Origin: Armatimonadota bacterium
GTDB taxonomy: Bacteria > Armatimonadota > Hebobacteria > CAIYQO01
DNA length: 64,000 nucleotides
NCBI GenBank assembly: GCA_038248345.1
Contig: JBBRXO010000001.1
Location: 1-64,000, forward strand
Direction: 5' to 3'
A model generated the notes under the pieces. The model made no database searches. It had not been told where the DNA came from and worked only from the letters and a program-made list of their open reading frames with translations. This document shows, in pieces, positions 4,984 through 36,674 of this stretch; positions within the stretch are counted from its first letter, which is position 1; every line of letters begins with the position of its first letter. Both the position numbers and the translations under genes were made by a program.

Positions 4984-5919
4984 TTAGAAATTATGGGCGG
5001 CGTATGCGCCGACCGCCAGGAAGATCAACGCCTGCTGCAATTGACTGGTACGCTTGTTGGAACGGTCAATGCGAGCAGAAAGGGAATTCTTCACATCTCC
5101 GGTGGAAGTGGCCATAGTGCCTGCCGCTTTCCCCAGTGCAGAATTGAGAGTAGCCAGGTCTACCGATACCGTATCACGCAAGGTGTTGATACGGAGATCC
5201 GTGGCAGTCTGGTTGGAGTTCATGCGCGCAAGCATATCTGTTTTCAAATCGCTATTAGCCTTCAGCAACATGGTTTCCTGACCTGTCATCTTCTTTTCGA
5301 TATTTCCATCCATGGTGAGGCGAGCATTAGCTTCACCCGTCAAATCCGACCGTAACGTAGTATCAGCTGCAGTCAGCGTCTCGTTCATCGCTGTCAGTTG
5401 CTTCGTCAGCTCTTCTTTGGTTGTAACGAACTTCGCATCGGTTTCGGCTTTGCTGGCGAGGAAACGCTTGTCTACATTGCTGTTCATATTCGCAAAACGG
5501 GTATCGAGACTGCCATTCAAATTGCCCAGCATTGTCGCGGTACCGGCATGTTCATCCGCAAGCTTTTTATCCTGCGCCAGCGCCAGCGCGGCAAGCTTGG
5601 CATCATTCTCGGTTTTGGTAGTAGCGAGCAATGTGGCTAATTGCTGGCGTGCTGCCGCTTCTACTTTCAATGAGTCTTCAACTTGCTTGCGGCTGTTGCG
5701 TTCAGCATCAAGGTTAGTCTGCAGCTTGTCGATCGCAGCCAGGGCTTTCTCCAACTTGTCATTGGTCAGGCTCAACTGCAACTGCGCCTTGGCCATGTTG
5801 TCATTCAGCACGATATTCGTCTTTTCCAGTTCGGCCAAACGCTTGCTTTCCGATGACTGGGCGAAAATAGGGACGGCGACGATAATGCCGAGAACCAGAA
5901 TGGTGATCATTCTACGCAT
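4984..5919 (-). CDS. Secreted or membrane-anchored coiled-coil protein of unknown function
   Basis: Signal peptide, long heptad-rich helical body and a hydrophobic C-terminal tail. AGGAG RBS. Confidence 0.7.
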   Translation of the reverse strand: MRRMITILVLGIIVAVPIFAQSSESKRLAELEKTNIVLNDNMAKAQLQLSLTNDKLEKALAAIDKLQTNLDAERNSRKQVEDSLKVEAAARQQLATLLATTKTENDAKLAALALAQDKKLADEHAGTATMLGNLNGSLDTRFANMNSNVDKRFLASKAETDAKFVTTKEELTKQLTAMNETLTAADTTLRSDLTGEANARLTMDGNIEKKMTGQETMLLKANSDLKTDMLARMNSNQTATDLRINTLRDTVSVDLATLNSALGKAAGTMATSTGDVKNSLSARIDRSNKRTSQLQQALIFLAVGAYAAHNF

Positions 5920-5942
5920 GATATTTCTCCTTTTGCTTTAGC

Positions 5943-7640
5943 TTAGCGAACTACTTCCAGTTCAGGCCCGGTGAAACTCAACGGAAGTTTTGTGTTGATA
6001 TCGGTGAGCAGTGAAGCATCATTCACCTGCAGTGCGCACTTTCCAACTCCCACTGTGCGGAAGCGGATGTTGGCGATGCTGGTGGTGGGTTGACGCAACA
6101 CAGAGGCCCCAGCGCGCGTACCACTTATTGTAATTATGCCGGGCTTGCTGATGTCTGACTTCCACTCCGTCAGCATGGCATAGCCATTCATCGCATCACC
6201 GCCGACGAAGGCGCTGCCGCGAGAGACCGACATCGGAGCGATGACCGCCGGGTCATACGTCACTGTAAATACGGCGCCATAGAAATTATCTGCCGGAGTA
6301 AGGTCGAGTGAAACGCTGAACGCGTTAGCGGGCATATCGTCAGCAGTTAGCGGTATCTTCGTCAGGCTGGAATTGAGCGTCAGGACGGCGGCGGGGACAT
6401 TGACATTGACGACGCGCGAAACGCTGTTCGGCTCGATGGTTGCGTTTTTCGTAGCGACATTTACCTTCACCGTCAGTGGCCCGCCTGCCTTGCCCGTGGG
6501 GCGTACGGTCCAGGTCTCCTGGCGGCCTTCGGCGGGTTTCAATTCCGCATAGCCCGTCACCCGCTTACTGCCGCCCACCAGCTCGAGCCCGTCAGGAAGT
6601 TCCAATGAGAGGATAGCATCTTTGGCAAGGAAGTTGCCGGAGTTCTCCAACATACCAGTGATATTGAAGGTGGTGTCACCCGCGCTATCATAATCCACGG
6701 CAGGGACGACGAATAAACCGAGGCTTAAGTTGCCTTTACTGAAACTGACATCGCCGATGCCATATTGCGTCTGGATGACACGTGCCTGACTTGCCCCCAA
6801 TGTGGTGGGGTTCCAGAATATCGCTGCGGCCGTGTCGCTCTCTTCTTCACCTTTGCGAATAAAGGAAGCGTCATCCGCTAGCGTCACCTGCCATTGGTCA
6901 TCTGCCAGCGTGCCCCAGTCGGCCACTATCAATGAGTTCGGCACAGTCAGTGCCCCGCCGCGCAGCGTGCCCAGCGAGACTACCGTCGGCTTCTCCACAC
7001 TGTCGAAGGCCATGAAGTACTCTGGAATATCCTCACCGCCAAAGGCGAGAGGGCTGCTGATAATTTTGCTGGCGATACGGAAAGGTGCGCCATCGTTCTT
7101 GCCGCACATGGTGTCTATGAGCATACGTATGCCTACTTCATGCGCAGTATCACCGCTGTTGGTAAGTCGATATTTGATCCCCACGGTGTCATATACCCGG
7201 CTGTACTGGCCGCGCACTATCTGTAAATCCTGCTGCACGGTGATATCACCGAATTTATAGGCACAGCTGATAACGCCGTTAGCCTCTAACGGAGCAGTCA
7301 CCTGCTCACCGAATTTGCCGCCCGCGCCAGCACGACGCACGGTCTCGCCGCCGAAGATGTAATTTTTGCCATCAATCCGCACGGTGGTGTAGCTGGTATA
7401 AGGTGCCTTACCGCCATATACCAGCGGCTGGTTCTGGCTATCCGGCTGTGAGGGGTAGCCATTGGTGACATTCACCGAGAAGCGTCCGGTCTCGCGCTCG
7501 CCGGCATTCACCGTAGCACGCACATATTCATTCTCAATCGACACAACCGGCGTGGGTTGGGGGCCAGCCTGTGCCCAGCAGGAGATAATGCCAACCAGCG
7601 TCAGCGAAACGGCGATGCTGGCCGTTAATAATTTATTCAT
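5943..7640 (-). CDS. Secreted beta-rich surface protein with Ig-like and C-terminal cohesin-like domains
   Basis: Signal peptide and an Ig-like segment (LENSG..AKDA.LSLELPDGLEL). The C-terminus looks cohesin-like (FYGAVFTVTYDPAVI...G.ITISG...IANIRF). Confidence 0.65.
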   Translation of the reverse strand: MNKLLTASIAVSLTLVGIISCWAQAGPQPTPVVSIENEYVRATVNAGERETGRFSVNVTNGYPSQPDSQNQPLVYGGKAPYTSYTTVRIDGKNYIFGGETVRRAGAGGKFGEQVTAPLEANGVISCAYKFGDITVQQDLQIVRGQYSRVYDTVGIKYRLTNSGDTAHEVGIRMLIDTMCGKNDGAPFRIASKIISSPLAFGGEDIPEYFMAFDSVEKPTVVSLGTLRGGALTVPNSLIVADWGTLADDQWQVTLADDASFIRKGEEESDTAAAIFWNPTTLGASQARVIQTQYGIGDVSFSKGNLSLGLFVVPAVDYDSAGDTTFNITGMLENSGNFLAKDAILSLELPDGLELVGGSKRVTGYAELKPAEGRQETWTVRPTGKAGGPLTVKVNVATKNATIEPNSVSRVVNVNVPAAVLTLNSSLTKIPLTADDMPANAFSVSLDLTPADNFYGAVFTVTYDPAVIAPMSVSRGSAFVGGDAMNGYAMLTEWKSDISKPGIITISGTRAGASVLRQPTTSIANIRFRTVGVGKCALQVNDASLLTDINTKLPLSFTGPELEVVR

Positions 7641-7658
7641 AGGGGTTGTCCTCTCGTA

Positions 7659-8363
7659 TTACAGTTCCGTTACTGTGCCATTTCCATTGAAGCGCCAGGA
7701 TTTCGTTACTGTGCCGGCGACGGCAACGCCGTTTTCCAGCGCCACCTGGTATGAGCCTTTTTGGGCTTTCAATACGGCTGCATTCGCAGCCCAGTCGGCT
7801 CCTATTACCACGGAATGTCCTGTGTATTTCCCATTAGTTCCGACGTTGATACTTATGGTAACGGTAGTCTCATCGCCATCGGTGTGGCCTTTGGGGTAGA
7901 TCGGCTTGCCAATAGACTCAATCTTCGCCCCACGTGTCTCACCTACATTGCCAGGCGAGCCTAATGGGCCAGTTGCACCATTGCCTTGCCCTCCTGTGGC
8001 GCCAGATGCTACTGAAGTATCAGATTTATCCACTGCCATTAACGCAGGAGCAACCGTAGCGCCAACGCCCGGGCCGTTGCTAGCATGGGGCCCCGGAGGG
8101 CCGGGGACAGTCCGATTGGAGTTGCCCAGCGGCAGTGGCACGCCTGGTTTATTAATGACCGTACTCGGATCATTAATTGGTGGTGGTACTGGCAAGGGGG
8201 GTATTGCTGCTGCCTCTACCGGGTCTATGATGCTCACTACGATGGTCTCCCGCTCGCCCTCGATCTGCTGCACCGCCAACGGGGTAAGCCGCATCCAGAG
8301 GAGCAGGAATATGTGAATCACTACCGAGACAGAAAGCCAGGTGTATATGGTATTGTTCTTCAT
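7659..8363 (-). CDS. TonB/TolA-like energy transducer
   Basis: N-terminal TM with the SxxxH motif (SVVIH), a Pro/Gly-rich linker and a TonB-C-like terminus (KPIYPK...V.I.V..NG...G.AV). Lies directly downstream of exbD. Confidence 0.7.
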   Translation of the reverse strand: MKNNTIYTWLSVSVVIHIFLLLWMRLTPLAVQQIEGERETIVVSIIDPVEAAAIPPLPVPPPINDPSTVINKPGVPLPLGNSNRTVPGPPGPHASNGPGVGATVAPALMAVDKSDTSVASGATGGQGNGATGPLGSPGNVGETRGAKIESIGKPIYPKGHTDGDETTVTISINVGTNGKYTGHSVVIGADWAANAAVLKAQKGSYQVALENGVAVAGTVTKSWRFNGNGTVTEL

Positions 8364-26545: not shown

Positions 26546-27664
26546 ATGCTCTACAAACAATACGGAAAATTAGATTTACGTGTCTCTGCAGTCGGCTTCG
26601 GCGGGATGCGTTTCGATACTACACTCCCTACGGCAGCCAATGCTGATCTCGTTCGTTATGCCTGCAGCATGGGTATTAACTATTTCGATACCGCTCCCGG
26701 GTATTGCGGCGATCAAAGCGAAAAAATCTTCGGCGAAGCCTTTCAGGACATGCCCGGCGAATACTTGGTTTCCACCAAAGGCATGCCTGTGCATTTTGAC
26801 ACCGCCGACAAAGCCTATGATGCAGTGCGCAAATCGCTGGATACCATGGGCATACCCAAAATTAATTTCTACCATGTGTGGTGTCTACGTAAGATGGAGC
26901 ATTATGAGCTGGCCATGCAGCCCGGCGGCCAGTACGATGGGCTGTTGCGCTGCAAAGAAGAGGGTCTGATCGATCATATTGTCTGCTCATCGCATCAGCC
27001 AGGGTATGAGATCCGCAAAATTGTAGAAGACGGAAAGTTCGATGGGGTTTTGCTAGGCATGAATATCCTCAATTTCCCCTACCGCTGGGACGGGGTAACA
27101 GCCGCCTACGAACATGGAATGGGAGTCGTTGCGATGAATCCTTTGAGCGGCGGAATGATCCCCCAGAACGAAGAATTATTCTCCTTCCTGGCGCAAGAAG
27201 GCGAGACCCCCACAGAGGCGGCATTGCGCTTCGTTATCTCCTGCCCGCAGATTACCGTCGCGCTTAATGGGTTCACAACTCGGGAGCATGTCGATCAAGC
27301 CTGCCGGGTGGCCGATCGCTGCACACCCTTCACCGAAGAAGACCTGACGCGCATCAAGTCACACCTCTCACAGAATCTGAACGCTGTTTGTACCGCCTGT
27401 GGCTATTGCGATAATTGCCCGCAAGGCATAAATATCCCCGCTTACATGCAAGTGTATAACCAGAAGCAGATGTTCGGCGCCACCGATGAGCAAATGATCG
27501 GAAAAATCAAAGGTGAGCGCGAGTGGAATACGCTCGTAGGTGTTACCGAGGAAACCTCGGCCAGTAACTGCATTGAATGTGGCCAATGCGAGCAGGATTG
27601 CCCTCAACATCTTAACATCATCGAACGACTGAAAGAATGTGCGGCTTGGGAAGCTGCTAGGTAA
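26546..27664 (+). CDS. Aldo/keto reductase with a C-terminal Fe-S ferredoxin-like domain
   Basis: GFGGMR, GINYFDTA..Y, STK and MNPL.GG motifs. CTACGYC..CP and CIECGQCE..CP clusters. Confidence 0.9.
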   Translation: MLYKQYGKLDLRVSAVGFGGMRFDTTLPTAANADLVRYACSMGINYFDTAPGYCGDQSEKIFGEAFQDMPGEYLVSTKGMPVHFDTADKAYDAVRKSLDTMGIPKINFYHVWCLRKMEHYELAMQPGGQYDGLLRCKEEGLIDHIVCSSHQPGYEIRKIVEDGKFDGVLLGMNILNFPYRWDGVTAAYEHGMGVVAMNPLSGGMIPQNEELFSFLAQEGETPTEAALRFVISCPQITVALNGFTTREHVDQACRVADRCTPFTEEDLTRIKSHLSQNLNAVCTACGYCDNCPQGINIPAYMQVYNQKQMFGATDEQMIGKIKGEREWNTLVGVTEETSASNCIECGQCEQDCPQHLNIIERLKECAAWEAAR

Positions 27665-27682: not shown

Positions 27683-28864
27683 TCATTTGTTTCGTTTATA
27701 TCGGGAAGCCAGGATGGCAACTACATTTACAACACGACGAATAGGTTTCAAAATTGGGTAGAGCCAGCGTAGATATCGGGGGAGCTTAATCCACGCATAA
27801 TCGTTGATAGTAGGGGTGAAGGTGCTCCCTATGATACTAAGTATCTGCCGATAACGGTTTTTTTCAGCGACCTTCATACAGAAAATAACTCGAGAGAGAA
27901 GATCTGGAGCGATGGTGTCGCTTTTCGCAATGAATGCGATCACATATTTTATGACCCAGCGTGCTCTGCCATCGCGGCGTAACCTGCTCAATATCTCATC
28001 TGGTAGCTCTATCCCCAACAACTGCTGAGATAGTCCTAGCCCCACTAGCATGGGATAGGTCAGCCCCTGTCTAAAGATGAGATCCGTCAGCTGTTGCGAT
28101 CCCTGCAAATCCATTTTACGGTAAACTTGCGCAAAGTCTGCTAACCATCGATATAATCTCCACAGATGATATGTACCATGGTGCGCAGTGAACAATAGCG
28201 TATCGGCCATCCCCAGCGTCATGATAGGTTGGCCATTTACCAGTACCTTTTGCGACCGCGCCAGCATCTCCGAAACAACAAGTGCATCGGGGAATTCTTG
28301 CATCGTAGCTGACCAATGCAACTCGATATGGCTGGCACCGAAATCAAAGGCTGAATGCCATGTATTCTCATCATCAACTACAATTTCATTGTTCGAGGTG
28401 ATCACTGCTCCCATGCTCAGCATTATCGTTTTTGCCTTGGTAAAATCGCTTTTTTGTACCAATATATCAATATCGACAAAGCGGCGCAGTGCCGGTTTAC
28501 CGTAGATAATCACCGCCAGTGTCGGGCCCTTCAGGCTTAACACAGCTATCCCTTCAGCTTCCAATGCTCGGGTGATTTTAATCAGATCACAGGTCATCCG
28601 GAAGACGCGGAATTCATTCGCCTGTTGGCTAGCCGCCAGCGCCTGCAATACTTCCGCCGGAACTATATCTGCAGCCACCTCGATCAATCGTTTATTTACC
28701 ATCGGGAAGACGCCATGGTGAATAGCCAGTGTCTGCACTATATCCCAGTCTACTGGCCGAGAGGCTGTCTCTCGGATAGCGGCATCACTCCCCTCGTCAA
28801 CACGCAGAGTGGCCTGGATAACCTGCAACTCGGAACTACCTATCATCTTAACCTGGTTAGGCAC
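27683..28864 (-). CDS. Nucleotidyltransferase (NTP_transf_5-like), lasso cluster tailoring enzyme
   Basis: LKG..LA...Y.....R...DIDILV and IELHW motifs. GTG start after AGGAGG, overlapping the ABC gene stop. Confidence 0.82.
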   Translation of the reverse strand: MPNQVKMIGSSELQVIQATLRVDEGSDAAIRETASRPVDWDIVQTLAIHHGVFPMVNKRLIEVAADIVPAEVLQALAASQQANEFRVFRMTCDLIKITRALEAEGIAVLSLKGPTLAVIIYGKPALRRFVDIDILVQKSDFTKAKTIMLSMGAVITSNNEIVVDDENTWHSAFDFGASHIELHWSATMQEFPDALVVSEMLARSQKVLVNGQPIMTLGMADTLLFTAHHGTYHLWRLYRWLADFAQVYRKMDLQGSQQLTDLIFRQGLTYPMLVGLGLSQQLLGIELPDEILSRLRRDGRARWVIKYVIAFIAKSDTIAPDLLSRVIFCMKVAEKNRYRQILSIIGSTFTPTINDYAWIKLPRYLRWLYPILKPIRRVVNVVAILASRYKRNK

Positions 28865-30716
28865 AGATATTTTCCTCCTGCTTTTCCTGATAATGTTTAG
28901 CCTGGGTGGCGTACAGATGTGCGTAAGTGCCCGCAAGCTGCAACAGCTCCTGATGGGTGCCGCGCTCGATGATGCAGCCCTGCTCCATCACATAGATATA
29001 ATCGGCCATCTGCACGGTAGAAAAACGATGGCTGATGAGCACTGCGCTCTTACCCTTGATAAGCGTGCGGAAACGTGTGAATAGTTCCGATTCTGCCAGC
29101 GGATCCAATGCGCTACTTGGTTCATCAAGGACAATGATATCTGATTGGCGCATGAAGGCGCGGGCGATGGCGAGCTTCTGCCATTCGCCGCCGCTTAGCT
29201 CCTCACCACCACTGAACATTTTCCCAAGCATGGTGTCGTAACCGTTGGGCAGGCGGTTGATCTTCCCGTCGATGCCCGCCGCTTCGGCCGCCACACGTAC
29301 TTCTTCCTGCGAAACATCACGTGACATGTCTCCCATACGGATATTATCAAAAACACTCGCCAGGCAACGCAGGTAATCCTGAAATACTACGCTCAGTTTT
29401 CTCCGCCATTCCTCCGGTGAAATATGGCGTATATCTATGCCCTCAATGGTTATCATACCCGAGGTTGGGTCATATAAGCGGCAGAGTAGTTTGATAAGTG
29501 TCGTCTTGCCAGATCCATTTGCCCCCACGAGAGCAATTACTTGACCGGGGAGTAACTCCATATCAATGTCGGTGAGGATTGGACTTTCACTCCCGGGATA
29601 ATTAAAAGATACCCCCTCAAAATGCACTCCTACTTTCGACGCTGTTGGAAACTCCACTACCGGTGGCACGGCAACAATCGCTGGCTGGAAATTTAAGAAC
29701 TGGTAGATATGCTCGAGGAATAAGCTATGCTCGTACAAGCTGGTAACACTGCTTAACAATCCTTGCAGGTTGCTGAATCCAGACTGGAATGCCTGGTAGT
29801 ACATCACCATGGCTCCCACGGTAATTACTTTATTTATAGTGGAGACGCCGATGAAACCCAACGCGGCGAAGATAGAGGCGGTGGCCACCCCCTGGGCGAA
29901 GAAATCCATTAGAGCACGATTGCGGAATATTTTCAGCCGTTCGTAACGTATCTTTTGCCGTAACCGGAGATACAGATCAGCAAATAATGGCCCTAATTGA
30001 AAGAGTCGAACTTCCTTGGCCGGGTAGGCATCCGTCAACATTAAATTATAATAGTAACAGCGCCGCTCGTCCTCAGTCTGTGCTTTCAGCAACCGGTGCA
30101 ACTTGCGCCCATAAAATAATCCGATCAACGCACCAGGGGCGGCGATGAGCATCACCGCCAGTGTCAACAACCAGTTATAGGCAAGTAATAAACCGAAGAT
30201 ACCCAGCACGGCGATACTATTCTGCACAATATGAATGATTGTAGAGTATACAGCTTGCGGACGAGATAATGCATCCTGCTGTGCCCGGCTCATCAGGTTA
30301 AAATCCTGCGGATTTTCGTAGAACTCCAGATCAACTGCAATTGATTTTGCATGGATGAGACTGGCGAATTTCTCCAACACCAGTTGCGATTGCGCCTCAT
30401 TTACCAACGAGGAAGCTGAACGGCAGAGGACGATTAATACGGCCACCCCGCCTGCCATCCCCACCCAAAAGATCAACTTCTGCGCAGCCATAGCCGGCGA
30501 TACACCCGATACTATGCTAAAGGTGGCGCTGTCGATAATCATCTTCATCAAAAACAGCGCCAATAATGGGAGCAGCCCTAGCATCACTACCAGCACTATA
30601 TTGAGGATATTCCACTGTGGAGCCGCACTCCACACCATGCGCAACGCATAGATGATATCACGAAGGAGAGCACGAAATGACTTATTGCTGGCTGGGCCTT
30701 TGGCATCAATTTTCAT
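28857..30716 (-). CDS. ABC transporter permease/ATP-binding protein (lasso exporter D)
   Basis: TM domain plus GANGSGKT, LSGGEWQK and LDEP motifs. No peptidase domain. Confidence 0.92.
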   Translation of the reverse strand: MKIDAKGPASNKSFRALLRDIIYALRMVWSAAPQWNILNIVLVVMLGLLPLLALFLMKMIIDSATFSIVSGVSPAMAAQKLIFWVGMAGGVAVLIVLCRSASSLVNEAQSQLVLEKFASLIHAKSIAVDLEFYENPQDFNLMSRAQQDALSRPQAVYSTIIHIVQNSIAVLGIFGLLLAYNWLLTLAVMLIAAPGALIGLFYGRKLHRLLKAQTEDERRCYYYNLMLTDAYPAKEVRLFQLGPLFADLYLRLRQKIRYERLKIFRNRALMDFFAQGVATASIFAALGFIGVSTINKVITVGAMVMYYQAFQSGFSNLQGLLSSVTSLYEHSLFLEHIYQFLNFQPAIVAVPPVVEFPTASKVGVHFEGVSFNYPGSESPILTDIDMELLPGQVIALVGANGSGKTTLIKLLCRLYDPTSGMITIEGIDIRHISPEEWRRKLSVVFQDYLRCLASVFDNIRMGDMSRDVSQEEVRVAAEAAGIDGKINRLPNGYDTMLGKMFSGGEELSGGEWQKLAIARAFMRQSDIIVLDEPSSALDPLAESELFTRFRTLIKGKSAVLISHRFSTVQMADYIYVMEQGCIIERGTHQELLQLAGTYAHLYATQAKHYQEKQEENICA

Positions 30717-30718
30717 TG

Positions 30719-31609
30719 TTATATCCCGGCCAGATCTTGCTCGACAAGTTCTAATACCTGGGCGATATCTTCTAAAGCGTTGTTTCGCTGTAAAATCCGA
30801 ATAGGAACAGATCGCACAATATTCATCGTCTGCTCAAAATGGAGTTTTGTGTCGATATTATGGAATACACGTATTCCATAAGTGTGGTGAACTAGTTCCA
30901 TCGCCGCCGCGAGCGGGGGTATTGGCTTGATCTCGGCAGCGCTACCCCAATCCAGCACGTATATACAAGCAAGTGGTGCAGGTTCAGCGTATATACGCTC
31001 TGCTACAATGTGGACGCGCTTTTCATTATGCGGAGATACCCGTGGTAATAGCTCGTGATCCTTTCCTAATGATTGCAAGGAATCTGGCCATAATTTAAAT
31101 TCCTGCACACCGGGATATATTAGGTATCCACTGTCATGAGGGTGGCAAACAACCACGTCATCCGTGAGCAGGTGATGCCCGCGTGCATGGAGCGCCGCGC
31201 AAAGTGTCGACTTGCCCCACCCCGATTCACCACTAAAGATAATTGCCCGCCCATTTACTACTACCGAACTAGCGTGCAATACAACCATCCCGCGCTGGTG
31301 CATAGCGGCAGCCAGCACAGCAGTTTTTACAAAGCGTTGTAAGATGTCGGTTCCGATTCCCAACTCGGGCATCACAGTAATGTATTGTCCGCAGGAGATC
31401 TTAAAGCACCCGATACCAACCCACTGCATATATATCGATTCTCCGTCTATACAGTAAAGAATGCCTGATTGTGCACGATTTAACGGAGGAATTGAAAATT
31501 CGCCTGGGCTTATGGTTATATCCGGGGAATTCTTTTGCTCTTTAACCCCCGACAAGGGATATGCAGATTTAATGTAAAAACCATGAATATTATATGTTAA
31601 AAAATCCAC
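30719..31609 (-). CDS. HPr-kinase-like lasso peptide kinase (PadeK-like)
   Basis: LHAS, Walker A GESGWGKST and LLTDD motifs. Directly downstream of the precursor gene. Confidence 0.82.
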   Translation of the reverse strand: MDFLTYNIHGFYIKSAYPLSGVKEQKNSPDITISPGEFSIPPLNRAQSGILYCIDGESIYMQWVGIGCFKISCGQYITVMPELGIGTDILQRFVKTAVLAAAMHQRGMVVLHASSVVVNGRAIIFSGESGWGKSTLCAALHARGHHLLTDDVVVCHPHDSGYLIYPGVQEFKLWPDSLQSLGKDHELLPRVSPHNEKRVHIVAERIYAEPAPLACIYVLDWGSAAEIKPIPPLAAAMELVHHTYGIRVFHNIDTKLHFEQTMNIVRSVPIRILQRNNALEDIAQVLELVEQDLAGI

Positions 31610-31622
31610 TATTAACCTTACG

Positions 31623-31667
31623 CAAAATCACCGGTAGATCTGCGTACAAACCTACCGGTCAATTTTT
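31623..31667 (-). terminator. Stem-loop downstream of the lasso precursor gene
   Basis: ACCGGTAG/CTACCGGT stem extended by flanking A/T runs. Confidence 0.6.
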
Positions 31668-31693
31668 GCCGAAATGCAATTTGCTCTGAATGA

Positions 31694-31879
31694 CTAAGCG
31701 GCTGAAGGATCGCCCCATGCGACAACGCCTTTAGCACCCGGCGGAGGGATCTGCAGTATAGGGGCTGCTTGCCCTATCCAAGTGAAATAGCCATCAAAGC
31801 CACCGCCGGCTACTTTGGCCTGCGTCAATTCCTCGATAGTACCGAAGATGCGCAGTGTCGGTTTTGCGTAAACTTTCAT
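31694..31879 (-). CDS. Lasso peptide precursor (A)
   Basis: Leader has YxxPxL (YAKPTL), G, and Thr at -2 (LTQ|A). The core starts with Ala and has Asp at position 9. AGGGG RBS. Lies between the cyclase and kinase genes. Confidence 0.88.
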   Translation of the reverse strand: MKVYAKPTLRIFGTIEELTQAKVAGGGFDGYFTWIGQAAPILQIPPPGAKGVVAWGDPSAA

Positions 31880-32086
31880 AATCTGATCCCCCTATTTTAA
31901 ACATATCAACATCCATGATTGTAGACTTGCTCCAAGTTCATTTAAGATAGTACCATAGCATTCCAAAACACACAAGCACTTTCTATTGTTTTTTGTCGAA
32001 ACATCAGACATTTTCGTACTTTGTAACGAAAAATTTGGTTTTGGGTCCAATTGCTTATTGTAGATGCAATAGCAGCCTGAGGAGCC

Positions 32087-33952
32087 CTATTTCATTTGCG
32101 CAAACCAGGCGGCCAGAGTTACGGCTGGCCAGACGTACATCCAGGTATCCCGCCGCACGGTTACATCGTCTAGATAGCAGGCGAAATATTCATCCAGTCT
32201 GGCGATGTCGACGTACGCTGCCAGCCGCTCGCGTTGGGCGGCCAGCGTCGCACGCAACAGTGTTATATCCATGCTCATGGCCCCATCTACATGCGGGGCC
32301 ATATCAGCCTTGCCTTTGCGCAATTGTATCGCCGGCGGCAGAATACCATGCAATGCATGACGAATTATATAGCGACTGAAGCCGTTATGGTATTTCTGCT
32401 CGGGCGGCATTGCCAGACAGAACTCGACCAATCGTTTATCCCAGAATGGGTAGCGGCCTTCCAACCCAAAATTGGCGCAAACCATATCAAACGATTCAAA
32501 GATCATCTGGTAAAAACCCAACGAAAGATCATTGTACTGCGCTTCACGATCAGACCAGACCCGCTGCATCTTCCGGTTGAAATCACTTTTAATCTTACTG
32601 ATCTGATAACGCTTGTGCAACTCGTGGCGAATTGGGTATTTGATGCGTTTGCCATGTCCATCCGGGTTATTACTAATTAGCGCGGTAATTATCGGTTTAA
32701 AACCCATCTGCCAGGCAAAACGAATGGCGTCTTTACGCCCGGTACCCCACACCGCGTAGGCCTCGCGGTAGAGTGTACGCCATTTCATCCCCAGCGCCAA
32801 CTCTACAAGATACTTCTCACCGTGGCCGATTGCGTTATCACCACCGAAACCTTCCAACATCGTGCGAACACCGCAGAAACGTGCCGAAGTATATGTACCT
32901 TTATGGAGATATATCGTAGTGCCGTAGTAGGGCTCATCTTGCGCCTGCTGCACATCCCAATATGCTTGATAAGGGCTAATTTCATCCATCGGCACCAGGT
33001 GCGGGTCTATCCCCCCCTGCGCTATGACGGCGTTAATGTACTCACGTTCATCACATTCCGGCAACTTGTCATATACCGCTGAGAAAGTCTGCAGTCCCCT
33101 CCCCTGCCCTTCCTGCTGTAATATATCACGCGCCATGCAGGTGATGGAGGAAGAATCGATCCCCCCGCTTAGTGCAGAGCCCAGCGGATAGATACTGCGA
33201 AGCCGGCACCGCACCGCTTCTGCAAATACCTCGCGGAAAGCGGAGCCATATTCTGCATTTGAGTTGAAGCGAATCTCCCTGCTTGGATCTAATGACCAGT
33301 ATCGCTCAACTTTAATGCCTTCGGAATTAACCGTCAAAGTACTGGCCGCCGGCAACCGATGCAACTGCTGATAGAAGCAGTCCGCTTTATCCTCAAAAAT
33401 ACATAATGACAGATATTGGGTGATCTTTTCTTCATTCAATTCACGGGGAATCTGCGGTAATGCGAGTAATCCGCGCACCTGGGTGGCGAAATAGAATTCG
33501 TCTTGTTGAAAAGCATAGTAGAATGGCTTCACACCGAAATGATCGCGCGCACAAAAAAGCTTATGCTGCCAGCCATCCCAGATTGCAAAAGCGAAGTCTC
33601 CTACCAGATGATCGGCGCATTTAGCTCCCCAGCGAACATAGGACGCCAGGATCAGCGCACTGTCGCTAACACCCTCATCAGTGAGATTCAAGCTACCGAG
33701 TAACTCGTTCCGATTATCAATCCGGGCATCTGCGGTAATTGCCAGCCGTGCTTCCGCATCATAAAAAGGAAGCGTTTCCTGCAGCGACTCTGGAGTTGTA
33801 AAAGACATCTGGTGGCCGAAACCAATTTTCCCATGAAACCAAATGCCGTTGCTATCCGGCCCACGATGCACTAATGCTTCCTGCATCATCTCCAGGTCGC
33901 GATGCAGGATGGGGCGCTCTTTAATATTATAGATGCCGGTTATCGCGGACAT
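32087..33952 (-). CDS. Lasso cyclase (asparagine synthetase-like, C)
   Basis: AsnB fold with LSGGIDSS, G.GGD and RYPF.D.RLVEF. The N-terminus is MSAITG, lacking the catalytic Cys of a true glutamine-hydrolysing AsnB. Confidence 0.9.
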   Translation of the reverse strand: MSAITGIYNIKERPILHRDLEMMQEALVHRGPDSNGIWFHGKIGFGHQMSFTTPESLQETLPFYDAEARLAITADARIDNRNELLGSLNLTDEGVSDSALILASYVRWGAKCADHLVGDFAFAIWDGWQHKLFCARDHFGVKPFYYAFQQDEFYFATQVRGLLALPQIPRELNEEKITQYLSLCIFEDKADCFYQQLHRLPAASTLTVNSEGIKVERYWSLDPSREIRFNSNAEYGSAFREVFAEAVRCRLRSIYPLGSALSGGIDSSSITCMARDILQQEGQGRGLQTFSAVYDKLPECDEREYINAVIAQGGIDPHLVPMDEISPYQAYWDVQQAQDEPYYGTTIYLHKGTYTSARFCGVRTMLEGFGGDNAIGHGEKYLVELALGMKWRTLYREAYAVWGTGRKDAIRFAWQMGFKPIITALISNNPDGHGKRIKYPIRHELHKRYQISKIKSDFNRKMQRVWSDREAQYNDLSLGFYQMIFESFDMVCANFGLEGRYPFWDKRLVEFCLAMPPEQKYHNGFSRYIIRHALHGILPPAIQLRKGKADMAPHVDGAMSMDITLLRATLAAQRERLAAYVDIARLDEYFACYLDDVTVRRDTWMYVWPAVTLAAWFAQMK

Positions 33953-34380
33953 GGCTCTCCCAGGGAAATCGGCGGAAAAGAAGTAAACCCGTGGCGTGCA
34001 CTGCCCCCGATAATAATGGTTCCATCACATACTAACCAGGCGTGGGCCAACAGTTTTTTTTCCTGCGGATCTACACCAATAAGCAACTCCGAAGTGTAAC
34101 CAAAATGCCGTAAAAGTATGCCCGCCGCCAACGCCTGCGTGAGGCAAGAGGCATGCGGCACCACCCGGCTGGCAAGTACCACCATGCGGGCGATACGTCC
34201 CGGTTGCGGGCGCGTTGCCAGCGCCTGCTGCTTGTAGGTTACCTTTTTTATCTCCGAGAGATTGCGGTGAAATGGTCTACGATATAAGTTAATACGAACC
34301 TGCCAGACGATTGCGAGCGCCAGAAATAACAAGCCCCAATCCGACTTACTCAGTCGGCGCAAGCGCTGCAGCGGATTCAT
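33940..34380 (-). CDS. Lasso leader peptidase B2 (transglutaminase-like)
   Basis: CL.QALA nucleophile and AHAWL motifs. Confidence 0.9.
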   Translation of the reverse strand: MNPLQRLRRLSKSDWGLLFLALAIVWQVRINLYRRPFHRNLSEIKKVTYKQQALATRPQPGRIARMVVLASRVVPHASCLTQALAAGILLRHFGYTSELLIGVDPQEKKLLAHAWLVCDGTIIIGGSARHGFTSFPPISLGEPCPR

Positions 34381-34663
34381 CGTGAACCTCTATCAATTTA
34401 TTCGTATAAAGATGATTCAGCAGCTCCTGCAAATCCTGCAGGCACTGTTCGGGGGTAACATCGAATTCAGCCATGATGGCTTGTTGCATCGCGGCCACAG
34501 TTTTACCTTCTTGAATAAGAGTCCAGGTGATGGCGCCTTCTTGATTCAATCCATAGTAAATCCCGGTGGCCAAGTTCAACATCACTTGCTCGCCGGTGAC
34601 TTCCGCCGATACCAGATCTGTGGTGGTGACAAATTTCGTTTGCAAGGGAAATTCAATTGCCAT
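34346..34663 (-). CDS. PqqD-family RiPP recognition element (lasso B1)
   Basis: LN..TG.YYGLN..G...W....EFDV......DL..LL..L pattern. AAGGAG RBS. Confidence 0.9.
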   Translation of the reverse strand: MAIEFPLQTKFVTTTDLVSAEVTGEQVMLNLATGIYYGLNQEGAITWTLIQEGKTVAAMQQAIMAEFDVTPEQCLQDLQELLNHLYTNKLIEVHDESAAALAPTE

Positions 34664-35237
34664 GTTTTGAAACTCCTTCTGTAAAATTACTGATACCATT
34701 TTACACTAGCTAGAAGGGAAAAACAATGCTACCAGCAAAAACGACCGATAATGGTGAATCGCTCATCTTCCGTGACGCCTGTCAGCGCAATATCTCCACA
34801 ATTTAGCCAACTGTGCGCAGATATCGGAGTGGACATTATGCTACCTTTGGCTATACCCGGATTTACAATGAGGAGCGGTTGCACCAATCATTGGACTACC
34901 TCACGCCAGCGATGTTGTGGAACGCATAAAATTTCTCTGCAACTAGCGCGCGAGCTTTGGGGGCTACGCGCTCCCAAACCCCGCGGCAGGATACCACCCT
35001 GCACCCAAGTAGCCAGTCAGCTCATCAGGGCGTCCTGCCCTGATGACCCTCCTGGCACTGAATATGAAATTATGGATTTAGGGGATTTAGGGGATTTGCA
35101 ACCCACCAAATTATCGTATTTTTTATGTATTGACAGAGGTGACACTTTAAAAAATGCAGTGGAGAAATCAATATTGAGACAAATCCAATCAAATTTTTGC
35201 TATACTATTTGTGATTCACTGGAAAGGAATACGTGCG

Positions 35238-36227
35238 ATGAAAGTACTTGTCACTGGTGGTGCTGGCTATATCGGCAGCACCATCTGCTCTGCCCTGGAA
35301 GATAGTGGGCATACGCCTGTTATACTAGATTCGCTCATCACCGGCTGCGAGCGATTTACGCAAGGACGGGCCTTTTATAACGGTGATATCGCCGATACCA
35401 CCATATTGGCGCAGATATTCTCCGCGCATCCGGAGATCATCTGCACCATTCATTGCGCTGCTCTCATCAGCGTGCCGGAGTCCGTGGCGCTCCCCTACGA
35501 TTACTACCATAATAATGTGGCGAAGTCGCTGGCGCTTTTTCGCACGTTGGCGCAGCATGGCTGCTCTCATGTGGTCTTCAGCTCTTCTGCATCGGTGTAC
35601 GATGATCCTGCCGATTTTATTGTCACCGAGGCATCACCATTGAACCCCCGAAGCCCCTATGCACGAACAAAATATATGATGGAGTTAGTGCTACAAGATT
35701 TCTGTGCCGCATATGAATTACGTGGCATCGCGTTGCGCTACTTCAACCCCATCGGAGCCGACCCGCAAATGCGCAGCGGTTCCTACGTGGCGAACCCCGC
35801 ACATGTGCTGGGGAAGATCATGAGTGTGGCGGCAGGCAAGGAACCGGTCTTTAACATCACCGGCACCTACTGGCCCACCCGCGATGGCAGCGGGATCCGT
35901 GACTACATCCACGTGTGGGATCTTGCCCGCGCCCACGTGCTAGCCGTGGAGCGCCTGGAGCAGCTCTTCCTAGGTGGAGAGAAGTATCGGGTGATCAACC
36001 TGGGCACCGGCCGTGGTGTAACGGTGAAGGAGCTGGTCCACGCTTTTGAAAGCGTTACCCAACAACCCCTGAACGCCGTAGAAACCCCCGCCCGCCCCGG
36101 TGACATAGCTGGCGCCTACGCCAACGCTGATACCGCCGCGGAATTACTCGGTTGGCACGCCGAACTCCCCATAGAGCGCGGCATCGCCGATGCATTACAG
36201 TGGGAAAAAGTAAAAATAGGACATTAG
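35238..36227 (+). CDS. galE: UDP-glucose 4-epimerase
   Basis: TGGAGYIGS, FSSSA.VY, YARTK, LRYFNP.GAD and RDYIHV.DLA motifs. Confidence 0.92.
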   Translation: MKVLVTGGAGYIGSTICSALEDSGHTPVILDSLITGCERFTQGRAFYNGDIADTTILAQIFSAHPEIICTIHCAALISVPESVALPYDYYHNNVAKSLALFRTLAQHGCSHVVFSSSASVYDDPADFIVTEASPLNPRSPYARTKYMMELVLQDFCAAYELRGIALRYFNPIGADPQMRSGSYVANPAHVLGKIMSVAAGKEPVFNITGTYWPTRDGSGIRDYIHVWDLARAHVLAVERLEQLFLGGEKYRVINLGTGRGVTVKELVHAFESVTQQPLNAVETPARPGDIAGAYANADTAAELLGWHAELPIERGIADALQWEKVKIGH

Positions 36228-36298: not shown

Positions 36299-36376
36299 TG
36301 GGGTGGGTAATCGGATTCGAACCGACGACCTCTAGTGCCACAAACTAGCGTTCTAACCTGCTGAACTATACCCACC
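36299..36376 (-). tRNA. tRNA-His (GTG)
   Basis: Cloverleaf with G-1, GTG anticodon, GGTTCGAAT T-loop, C73 and encoded CCA. Confidence 0.95.
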
Positions 36377-36397
36377 ACGAACTACCGACATTAATAT

Positions 36398-36473
36398 TGG
36401 TGCGCCCAGCAGGGCTCGAACCTGCGGCCTACTGCTTAGAAGGCAGTTGCTCTATCCGCTGAGCTATGGGCGC
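36398..36473 (-). tRNA. tRNA-Arg (TCT)
   Basis: Cloverleaf, anticodon loop CTTCTAA, encoded CCA. Confidence 0.95.
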
Positions 36474-36476
36474 AGG

Positions 36477-36551
36477 TGGAGCGGGAGACGGGGCTCGAAC
36501 CCGCGACATCCAGCTTGGAAGGCTAGCGCTCTACCACTGAGCTACTCCCGC
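36477..36551 (-). tRNA. tRNA-Gly (TCC)
   Basis: Cloverleaf, anticodon loop CTTCCAA, encoded CCA. Confidence 0.95.
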
Positions 36552-36597
36552 CCAACTTCTTCTTTTTGCACCACTTTTCAATATACCATTTTAAAAA

Positions 36598-36674
<77 letters not shown>

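Follow-up and report, generated by a model that had tools for sequence, protein, structure and literature searches.

Seven genes on the minus strand occupy positions 27683-34699 of the window, by which we mean the whole stretch of 64,000 nucleotides that was analysed, and they stand in the order B1-B2-C-A-K-D-N (Table 1). They are co-oriented and partly overlapping, as a previous sequence-only reading had claimed: B1 and B2 share 35 nt, B2 and C share 13 nt, and the seven frames are all intact, with the catalytic motifs retained. D and N share 80 nt only with TTG 28936 as the start of N. A start at ATG 28846 removes the overlap and may be the right one, since the structure model has low confidence over residues 1-32. 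For B1, the second in-frame ATG, at 34663, is a likelier start than 34699 because an AAGGAG ribosome-binding site lies 9 nt upstream, and this is where the cluster had first been drawn to end. Family models and conserved motifs identify B1, B2, C, K, D, and N, and seven family matches within one operon-like array are far beyond chance. The profile searches suggested earlier (PF05402, PF13471, PF00733, PF14907) all gave matches, and the family models bear out the proposal that the split-B lasso cluster is complete and includes both a kinase and a PF14907 nucleotidyltransferase. The GC content is 49.1% in the cluster and 53.1% in the remaining window. The sequencing runs that contain the stretch are all DNA runs.

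Table 1. Genes and other features of the lasso peptide locus and its upstream border.
Feature	Position	Strand	Evidence
B1, PqqD-family RiPP recognition element (leader-binding chaperone)	34346..34699	-	PF05402 58.4 bits
B2, transglutaminase-like leader peptidase	33940..34380	-	PF13471 79.6 bits; NF033537 lasso_biosyn_B2 74.7
C, ATP-dependent lasso macrolactam (isopeptide) cyclase	32087..33952	-	NF033535 707.2 bits
A, 61-aa precursor P0121	31694..31879	-	leader 1-20, predicted core 21-61
Stem-loop between A and K, terminator- or attenuator-like	31630..31659	-	fold
K, HprK-like peptide kinase	30719..31609	-	TIGR04352 55.3 bits; PF07475 32 bits
D, MsbA-like ABC exporter (fused permease + ATPase, no peptidase domain)	28857..30716	-	PF00664 + PF00005
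N, PF14907 nucleotidyltransferase-fold tailoring enzyme	27683..28936	-	PF14907 166.4 bits
Remnant B2 gene (last 43 codons), distinct from the B2 of the cluster	34729..34887	-	PF13471 19.7 bits, E 8e-4
Possible transposase C-terminus remnant (integrase core end)	34813..34929	+	PF13683 rve_3 23.1 bits, E 6.5e-5

The locus has the discrete PqqD-like RRE and transglutaminase-like peptidase by which split-B lasso clusters are recognised. B1 scores 62.2 bits with NF033536 (lasso_PqqD_Bac), under the 80-bit cut-off. B2 passes NF033537 (cut-off 33 bits) and carries Cys79 and His113, which we take to be its catalytic residues. C exceeds the 525-bit cut-off of NF033535 by 182 bits and fails TIGR01536 (AsnB), with 260.4 bits for a cut-off of 267.1. 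It starts with Met-Ser, and because this Ser2, at least 90% conserved in an alignment of 23 relatives, stands at the position of the AsnB Cys, the Cys1 nucleophile of AsnB is absent. The PP-loop for ATP (S-G-G-x-D-S, residues 262-267) is invariant in 23 sequences. C, the sole copy of the cyclase in the genome, is accordingly an asparagine-synthetase-like lasso cyclase without Cys1 and not an AsnB, as had been read from the letters.

The precursor gene A lies between C and K, like the predicted precursors of related loci, with a GGGGGA ribosome-binding site 7 nt upstream. By its motifs the leader is lasso-type: it reads Tyr4-x-x-Pro7-x-Leu9, with Gly13 and Thr19 (position -2), and together with the core it follows the definition used for lasso precursors (Y/W-x-x-P-x-L/V/I, Thr at -2, a small residue at core 1, Asp/Glu at 7-9; PMC13381572). 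An HMM derived from related loci gives this leader 29.7 bits and has no other match of at least 10 bits in the window; NF033521 gives A 17.5 bits, below its 19-bit cut-off. The predicted core has 41 residues, starting at Ala21 (core 1), with Asp29 as core 9, and we are confident that the cluster cyclises Ala1 to Asp9. For the cyclised core of this allele (core minus 18 Da), the predicted neutral monoisotopic mass is 4019.07 Da. Position 3 is Val, and the one Ser is antepenultimate, at position 39 of 41; A ends Pro-Ser-Ala-Ala-stop, an end on which the contigs of two runs agree. Since characterised lasso peptides have 15-30 residues (PMC6993621), the predicted product is unusually long, and its threading or further trimming is uncertain. 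The stem-loop that follows A has a 13-bp stem, a T-rich tail, and a folding energy of -27 kcal/mol (z -3.79; none of 200 shuffles is as stable); it would hold the precursor mRNA in excess over the enzyme mRNA.

The tailoring enzymes keep their catalytic residues. K scores under the cut-offs of all curated HprK models (TIGR04352 in Table 1; for PF07475 the cut-off is 33.3 bits), aligns to the HPr kinase P-loop of 3tqf, and has the His, the G-x-x-G-x-G-K-S, and the Asp-Asp of HprK-like kinases (PMC10368454, PMC9266682). Their spacing, H112...G127-x-x-G130-x-G132-K133-S134...D150-D151, is that of the BsfK motif (PMC10368454), and R106, H112, G132, K133, D150, D151, and K197 are invariant in 43 sequences. 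N is a PF14907-type nucleotidyltransferase with the Asp-x-Asp of the pseudomycoidin subtype, and K136, G137, R151, D155, D157, and H207 are invariant in 25 sequences. Its structure model (pLDDT 83.3) resembles MenT1, ANT(2'')-Ia, LnuA, and FKRP; the fold of PsmN is likewise reported to be ANT(2'')-Ia-like (PMC6993621). We tentatively suggest that N may add a sugar or another group onto the Ser39 phosphate. The reaction is described as unsettled even for PsmN (PMC6993621), and LppN as inactive in a heterologous host (PMC13381572). D is 35-47% identical to the transporters at the same position in related loci.

How the core varies was read from three further sequences. The core relatives found were P0242 and P0247 only, the first of which is encoded beside P0002, the closest cyclase relative of C (63% identity). 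With the window precursor they share an invariant Ala1, Asp9, residues 10-14, and a Gly-x-Pro-Ser-x-x end. A minor allele, present in one metagenome run, has nine core residues changed and one inserted, and retains Ala1, Asp9, and the Pro-Ser-x-x end (Pro-Ser-Gly-Val), again with a single Ser. It differs from the window by 12 non-synonymous and 0 synonymous changes in the core, with the leader unchanged, which indicates selection on the product rather than decay. The allele pair is a natural experiment, if a small one, on the positions of the core that are free to change. In all four precursor variants exactly two residues follow the Ser (Ala-Ala, Gly-Val, Asn-Ile), and Tyr11 and Thr13 are also invariant. 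At a wider scale, the predicted cores of related loci contain at least one Ser in 89 cases out of 89, where about six Ser-less cores are expected; 56 do not end in Ser, and 0.7% of shuffles of these give no Ser-less core, while 11 of the 89 have no Thr. This count is not an independent test, since the sequences are related and the leader HMM was seeded from the same loci.

We favour, with a probability of roughly 0.6, the reading that this is an intact seven-gene split-B lasso cluster of the NF033535 ("cyanobacterial-type") family, whose predicted 41-residue lasso is likely phosphorylated on its one Ser and then decorated. The pathway would involve 1) binding of the Tyr-x-x-Pro-x-Leu leader by B1, which presents the precursor; 2) phosphorylation of Ser39 on the linear precursor by K, aided by B1, as characterised kinases do; 3) cleavage by B2 after Gln20, two residues past the position of the conserved Thr; 4) activation of Asp9 with ATP by C, which would link it to the freed Ala1 amine and produce a 9-residue ring and a 32-residue threaded tail; 5) addition of a further group to the phosphate by N (a Pol-beta-type fold with intact D-x-D), one or two hexoses in the case of pseudomycoidin; and 6) export of the product by D. 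Within this scheme we give about even odds that Ser39 is the phosphorylation site, an assignment that rests on conservation across only four precursor variants, in which Thr13 and Tyr11 are conserved too.

It is less probable, though the strongest of the alternatives, that the lasso peptide is made and Ser39 is not the target of K, either because Thr13 or Tyr11, beside the ring, is phosphorylated or because K refuses the core, in which case the product would carry no modification or carry it at another place. The two sites used by characterised kinases are the C-terminal Ser, which paeninodin-type kinases recognise specifically according to a review (PMC8498205), and Ser3, used by enzymes of the same family on BsfA (PMC10368454) and LppA (PMC13381572), and this core has neither. 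BsfK accepted Thr in place of Ser (PMC10368454), and Thr13 and Tyr11 do not vary among the four precursor variants. Against this, BsfK is reported to refuse Tyr (PMC10368454) and LppK both Thr and Tyr (PMC13381572), the Gly-x-Pro-Ser-x-x end is retained while neighbouring residues vary, and Ser is found in every related core whereas Thr is missing from some. The retention of all catalytic residues in K and N also argues for a substrate within the cluster.

We judge it unlikely that a host carboxypeptidase, or processing upon export, removes the final two residues such that Ser39 becomes C-terminal and the system works like those of paeninodin and pseudomycoidin. The constant number and variable identity of the residues after Ser would fit such trimming. 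So would the cyclase tree, where the group of the window has 20 rows with cores ending in Ser in 12, and where both precursors of the sister cluster L111, each of 24 residues, end in Ser. However, this group is loosely supported (SH-aLRT 88, with a branch length of 1.14 for the window), B2 is the only peptidase encoded in the cluster, and known kinases are described as acting while the precursor is linear and full-length, with the leader still attached (PMC9266682, PMC8498205, PMC10368454).

The history of the locus raises a further and more improbable alternative, namely that the cluster was acquired, is silent or decaying, and yields no product in this organism. The host belongs, as proposed, to the Armatimonadota: among the best 120 RpoC matches listed, all eight that bear an organism name are from this phylum (65-85% identity). 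The cyclase family is patchy there, present in 6 of 401 sampled Armatimonadota genomes, in none of the 11 other genomes of the host's family, and absent from G001, a genome of the same genus (77% complete). The lower GC content points the same way, as do the remnants that adjoin the cluster. Directly upstream of B1 lies the end of another B2, which matches the C-terminus of the G001 B2 at 22 of 43 residues (E 4e-15) and the window's own B2 at 8 of 22. The possible transposase end is a match below the 26.5 cut-off that covers only the last 19 profile positions, and because it overlaps the B2 remnant on the opposite strand, the two readings may not both be real. Speaking against decay are the seven open frames with intact catalytic residues and the exclusively non-synonymous divergence of the core alleles beside an unchanged leader. 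Finally, that C is a true glutamine-dependent asparagine synthetase in a coincidental neighbourhood has a negligible probability: its PF00733 and GATase domains match and its TIGR01536 score is close to the cut-off, but the curated models, the Ser in place of the catalytic Cys, and the flanking B1, B2, and leader-bearing precursor refute this identity.

If expressed, the product of the intact lasso cluster would widen the range of sizes known for lasso peptides, and it would test how HprK-like RiPP kinases choose their Ser, since this core obeys neither of the two known site rules. Given the 56 of 89 related precursors that do not end in Ser, a result here would inform a large uncharacterised group. 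A literature search pairing lasso peptides with Armatimonadota gave no paper that names both in its title or abstract and showed no characterised product from this phylum, in agreement with the earlier statement. The fullest version of the claim combines the longest lasso peptide yet (41 residues), a third kinase regiochemistry at the antepenultimate Ser of Gly-x-Pro-Ser-x-x, and a tail between ring and Ser under diversifying selection in one natural Armatimonadota population; we regard it as rather doubtful. Beyond the peptide, the gene cluster is ordinary and can be annotated automatically.

Comparison with known systems places the locus in a widespread type that NCBIfam names automatically and for which annotations already exist in other Armatimonadota MAGs. 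Clusters of the NF033535 model ('lass_lactam_cya'), which the window cyclase passes, are found in cyanobacteria and many phyla. Among 79 named loci, many of them interrupted by contig ends, B1-B2-C-K is collinear in 50, B1-B2-C-K-D in 35, and B1-B2-C-K-D-N, across many phyla, in 17. Such loci often share with the window a core of at least 33 residues (38/89) and an end other than Ser. The cyanobacterial long-core clade is a separate, fully supported branch of the cyclase tree, with an internal Gly-Ser-x-Asp-Gly and a core unrelated to that of the window. A long-tailed proteobacterial lasso peptide shares the long C-terminal tail and has neither kinase nor nucleotidyltransferase; the predicted core of the window is longer.

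The psm cluster of Bacillus pseudomycoides and the pade cluster of Paenibacillus dendritiformis have the same split B1/B2, cyclase, HprK-like kinase (His/Lys/Asp-Asp), and ABC exporter, and their cores also start with Ala and form the ring to an Asp (PMC6993621, PMC9266682); psm adds a PF14907-type nucleotidyltransferase (PMC6993621). The earlier claim that the gene set matches paeninodin and pseudomycoidin clusters thus stands for gene content. It fails for the precursor end, since psm and pade precursors are reported to end in the phosphorylated Ser (PMC6993621, PMC9266682), and for gene order, which is C-A-K-B1-B2-N-D in psm (PMC6993621). Their cores are also about half as long, and they belong to Bacillota (PMC6993621, PMC9266682). 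The linear polyphosphorylated peptides (LPP) of Bacillota resemble the window in having a long core (45 residues) and a phosphorylated Ser that is not C-terminal, but their site is Ser3 and their clusters are described as having a signal-peptidase-like leader peptidase and neither cyclase nor B2 (PMC13381572), whereas the window has C and B2 and no SpI-like gene in the cluster. The bsf cluster of Bradymonas sediminis encodes the same seven functions (A, B1, B2, C, D, K, N), and there B1 speeds up phosphorylation (PMC10368454). Sites of the Bsf type have Ser/Thr at core position 3 and Ile/Val at -2; BsfK targets the ring Ser3 and BsfA has Ile at -2 (PMC10368454), whereas the window has Val3 and the canonical Thr. 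Like that of the window, the bsf precursor does not end in Ser, which indicates that such kinases can use other sites (PMC10368454). Set among these systems, the cluster is ordinary in kind and unusual in its peptide.

The seven open reading frames at 27683-34699, all on the minus strand (Table), form a lasso peptide cluster: the observation of the sequence-only reading is confirmed and its lasso interpretation is right, since open frames and family models bear out the seven co-oriented genes, with PF05402 matching the RRE protein B1, PF13471 the leader peptidase B2, and PF14907 the nucleotidyltransferase N. There are overlaps of 35 nt between B1 and B2 and of 13 nt between B2 and the cyclase C. 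The proposed cluster end, 34663, falls on B1's second ATG, which is the likelier start because an AAGGAG site lies 9 nt upstream, although the frame itself opens at 34699. N may start at ATG 28846 instead of TTG 28936, because its residues 1-32 are unaligned and modelled with low confidence. All seven genes are single-copy in the 2.98-Mb genome, except for generic ABC ATPase matches to the exporter D, and a scan for promoters, with 9 sites where 13.4 are expected, gives no evidence of any. C had been read as a lasso cyclase that should not group with true AsnB enzymes. It scores 707.2 bits on the NCBI lasso cyclase model NF033535 (cut-off 525), and with the AsnB model TIGR01536 its score of 260.4 bits stays under the cut-off of 267.1, which leads us to reject AsnB and keep the lasso assignment. 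Its N-terminus is Met-Ser; among 23 aligned family members Ser2 is conserved in at least 90%, and the PP-loop residues S262, G263, G264, D266, S267, and S268 are invariant.

Features of the cluster, its surroundings, and related loci
Feature	Coordinates	Strand	Description
Aldo-keto reductase	26546-27664	+	C-terminal 4Fe-4S dicluster domain; convergent to N
N	27683-28936	-	PF14907, 166.4 bits
D	28857-30716	-	619 aa; ABC_membrane and ABC_tran
K	30719-31609	-	296 aa; HprK-like kinase
A	31694-31879	-	61 aa; precursor, leader HMM
C	32087-33952	-	621 aa; NF033535 lasso cyclase
B2	33940-34380	-	PF13471 79.6 bits; NF033537 74.7 bits (cut-off 33)
B1	34346-34699	-	PqqD, PF05402, 58.4 bits
B2 remnant	34729-34887	-	final 43 codons of a second, different B2; directly upstream of B1
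Possible transposase end	34813-34929	+	integrase core; rve_3 23.1 bits, under cut-off
galE	35211-36227	+	UDP-glucose 4-epimerase-type; divergent from B1
Four tRNA genes in a row	36299-36674	-	His, Arg-TCT, Gly-TCC, Pro-TGG; just past galE
G001 cassette (L098, G001:C13): B2 peptidase	5146-5583	-	lasso-type
G001 cassette: B1	5573-5911	-	PqqD RRE
G001 cassette: K	6000-6881	-	HprK-like kinase
G001 cassette: secreted-looking protein	7034-7756	-	240 aa; no Pfam family
G001 cassette: peptide	7844-8014	-	56 aa; Trp-x-x-Pro-x-Val leader-like motif; 15-residue tail ending in Ser
Peptidase_S74-fused precursor, L113	9973-10464	-
Peptidase_S74-fused precursor, L083	9432-10055	+
Peptidase_S74-fused precursor, L142	1686-2207	+
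Peptidase_S74-fused precursor, L143	2722-3243	+

The precursor A (P0121) is preceded by a GGGGGA site and carries a leader with Tyr4-x-x-Pro7-x-Leu9, Gly13, and Thr19. On a leader HMM built from 31 motif-seeded small ORFs in related loci it scores 29.7 bits, the sole match of at least 10 bits within the window; it lies below the curated precursor models (NF033521, 17.5 bits for a cut-off of 19; NF033528, 16.1 bits for a cut-off of 33). A 52-aa frame between C and A (31892-32050) was rejected as an alternative precursor, having no leader HMM match. Cleavage is predicted two residues past Thr19, which would release a core of 41 residues in which Ala1 and Asp9 would close a 9-residue ring. For the window allele, the linear core is calculated at 4037.08 Da and the form lacking one water at 4019.07 Da (neutral monoisotopic). 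The core has no Cys and a single Ser (39), Thr (13), and Tyr (11), and the frame terminates Pro-Ser-Ala-Ala-stop. Between A and the kinase gene K lies a stem-loop with a 13-bp stem and a U-rich tail (-27 kcal/mol, z -3.79; 0 of 200 shuffles fold equally well), from which we infer an attenuator favouring precursor mRNA.

Relatives of this precursor are few. A word-index search returned nothing beyond the precursor itself, and six 8-residue patterns matched 437 stretches of metagenome contigs with zero relatives among them. Exhaustive HMMER searching of 1.84 billion representatives gave five matches at E <=0.001, of which P0242 is the sole small precursor-like protein (62 aa, annotated hypothetical, E 1.7e-13, 62% identity over residues 1-53); it shares a 10.8-kb contig, with consecutive accessions, with P0002, the closest cyclase relative. 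P0247 is a near-copy of P0242. Across these three precursors the leader motif, Ala1-Lys-Val, Gly5-7, Phe8, Asp9, residues 10-14, Gly16-Gln17, and the Pro-Pro and Gly-Ala of the tail are invariant, and the terminus keeps Gly-x-Pro-Ser followed by two variable residues.

The population carries two precursor alleles. When contigs from two metagenome runs were placed along the cluster, run X1 showed a simple bubble limited to 31631-31836, with a major path at depth 9.8, a minor path at depth 3.5, and single flanking contigs each at depth 11.4 (27683-31411 and 31807-34699), depths that fit two strains, not tandem copies. The major path is one letter off the window (31749, giving core Ile24Asn), a letter also found in run X2. 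The minor path, absent from X2, has 15 differences and a 3-nt insertion. Translated by applying these differences, it reads G5A, G6T, I15T, A18V, P27K, K30L, Asp37 replaced by Gly-Glu, A40G, and A41V, and keeps the leader, Ala1, Asp9, residues 8-14, the Pro-Ser-x-x end, and a single Ser, as in the window. All 12 in-frame substitutions are non-synonymous (11 at codon positions 1-2, one at position 3), an outcome with a chance of 0.027 when 26% of all possible changes would be synonymous. The contigs of a run containing 97% of the window's words differ from it at seven single positions (28092, 30006, 31241, 31255, 31749, 32303, and 32322), so that the strain dominating this run and the assembled genome are not identical. 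The runs with the stretch come from a single study of sediment metagenomes, and no RNA run is among those listed as carrying it.

The kind of cluster is known and common. At least 6179 of 8000 candidates scored are cyclase relatives at E <=0.001, the best being P0002 and P0003 (63-64% identical), followed by one match at 47% named Armatimonadota and then by Sumerlaeota and many cyanobacteria at about 42%. Of 603 pattern matches in named species-representative genomes, 583 encode relatives; we retained 79 loci from these genomes. Homologues of K and N (at least 80 bits) occur in 64 and 35 of them; B1-B2-C-K are collinear in 50, with D in 35, and with N as well, the window's exact order, in 17, counts to be read knowing that many of the 79 loci are truncated at contig ends. 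The hosts include Cyanobacteriota, Acidobacteriota, Verrucomicrobiota, Chloroflexota, Rokubacteria, Gemmatimonadota, Methanobacteriaceae, and one Armatimonadota family. In the window's phylum, counting its own genome, the cyclase-family cut-off is exceeded in 6 of the 401 genomes sampled, while of 11 further genomes in its family none exceeds it; the five carriers besides the window's genome have the same cluster type with cyclases 35-41% identical and different cores. Searching metagenomes for the cyclase recovered 27 loci, 23-54% identical, and no core resembling the window's. The cluster is another member of a large, catalogued group that is experimentally almost unstudied. The suggested armatimonadotal origin holds: among 120 relatives listed for the central 501 residues of RpoC, all eight organism-named ones are Armatimonadota/Armatimonadetes MAGs, with identities of 85% and 84% for the nearest two. 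A quick maximum-likelihood tree of 75 cyclases (leaving out matches covering fewer than 540 query residues, frames outside 560-760 aa or with a stop, and the duplicate L114) places the window's on a long branch (1.14), sister to that of L111, from a different genome of the phylum, with weak support (SH-aLRT 88), in a loose group dominated by Ser-ending cores (12 of 20). The clade of cyanobacterial long-core loci stands apart, with full support.

GC content is 49.1% in the cluster and 53.1% in the rest of the window. The B2 remnant overlaps the possible transposase end, and together, between galE and the cluster, they mark a past rearrangement. In G001, a 77%-complete genome of the window's genus, galE (90% identical) and the tRNA genes are syntenic, and the place next to galE holds a cyclase-less cassette (5146-8014, minus strand). 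The remnant matches the end of G001's B2 at 22 of 43 residues and the window's own B2 at 8 of 22. No cyclase was found in this incomplete genome, and the cassette may be a linear phosphorylated peptide system with B2 as leader peptidase. Remnant and cassette at galE therefore indicate that the window's lineage lost most of such a cassette and has the full lasso cluster instead, the latter either inserted in this lineage or lost in G001. In five genomes from the window's family, no aldo-keto reductase, galE, or lasso gene lies within 12 kb downstream of rpoC, so synteny is uninformative on insertion. While galE could supply a hexose donor for N, it is probably housekeeping because of its synteny and identity in G001, and the aldo-keto reductase is probably unrelated to the cluster. 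In the spacer upstream of galE there are about three tandem copies of a G/T-rich 9-base unit (~35075-35102); the 98 bases at 35052-35149 are probably a dispersed repeat, because they match another G001 contig at 76% identity.

Both tailoring enzymes retain family-wide residues. K aligns with HPr kinases of solved structure around their P-loop (3tqf, E 4.7e-4), and R106, H112, G132, K133, D150, D151, and K197 are invariant among 43 kinases of related loci. Its His...G-x-x-G-x-G-K-S...D-D spacing is identical to that of BsfK, where mutagenesis showed that this motif matters (PMC10368454). In N, K136, G137, R151, D155, D157, and H207 are invariant (25 sequences). Its sequence has no meaningful match in the PDB, and its AlphaFold model (pLDDT 83.3, pTM 0.83) is closest to small Pol-beta-fold nucleotidyltransferases, namely MenT1 (8rr5, E 8.9e-4), ANT(2'')-Ia (4wqk, 5cfs, 4xje), and LnuA, with a weaker resemblance to FKRP, a CDP-ribitol phosphotransferase. 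The pseudomycoidin paper (PMC6993621) names 5cfs and 4xje for PsmN too.

The target of K is less easily assigned. Among 89 distinct predicted cores (68 loci, window included; leader HMM matches of at least 15 bits, fused precursors of more than 70 residues dropped), 33 end in Ser, and so do 6 of the 38 long ones (>=33 residues). All 89 contain a Ser, where about six Ser-less cores are expected from pooled composition; for the 56 cores without a terminal Ser, 0.7% of 5000 shuffles yield zero Ser-less, and, as controls, Thr is absent from 11 and Asn from 13 of the 89. This is a hint, not a test, because the sequences share ancestry and the same loci supplied the HMM seeds. The cyanobacterial long cores lying between C and K in eight loci (L043, L045, L047, L050, L051, L052, L055, and L056; 36-54 residues) share an aromatic-rich stretch right after the ring Asp and an internal Gly-Ser-x-Asp-Gly, 8-12 residues from the end, the latter a candidate kinase site in those without a terminal Ser. 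Four loci of the same cyclase family carry a lasso-type leader and short core fused to a self-cleaving intramolecular-chaperone domain of the Peptidase_S74 type (PF13884, 37.8 and 38.1 bits in L113 and L083, the two loci scanned), with Ser-Asp-Arg-x-x-Lys immediately past the core; self-cleavage there could leave the core C-terminus at or beside a Ser. In the literature collection searched, no paper mentions lasso peptides together with intramolecular chaperones or Peptidase_S74.

The characterised systems, as described in the cited papers, offer two sites. For paeninodin, its Thermobacillus and Sphingobium homologues, and pseudomycoidin, the kinase adds phosphate to the C-terminal Ser while the precursor is still linear, and in pseudomycoidin PsmN then puts one or two hexoses onto the phosphate (PMC9266682, PMC6993621, PMC8498205); Bradymonas BsfA and the linear LPP peptides are phosphorylated at Ser3 (PMC10368454, PMC13381572). 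The window is not unique within its family in this respect. The peptide is unusual in length, and the putative kinase site that it implies is unusual as well: its core has neither the C-terminal Ser of paeninodin and pseudomycoidin nor the Ser3 of BsfA and the LPP peptides.
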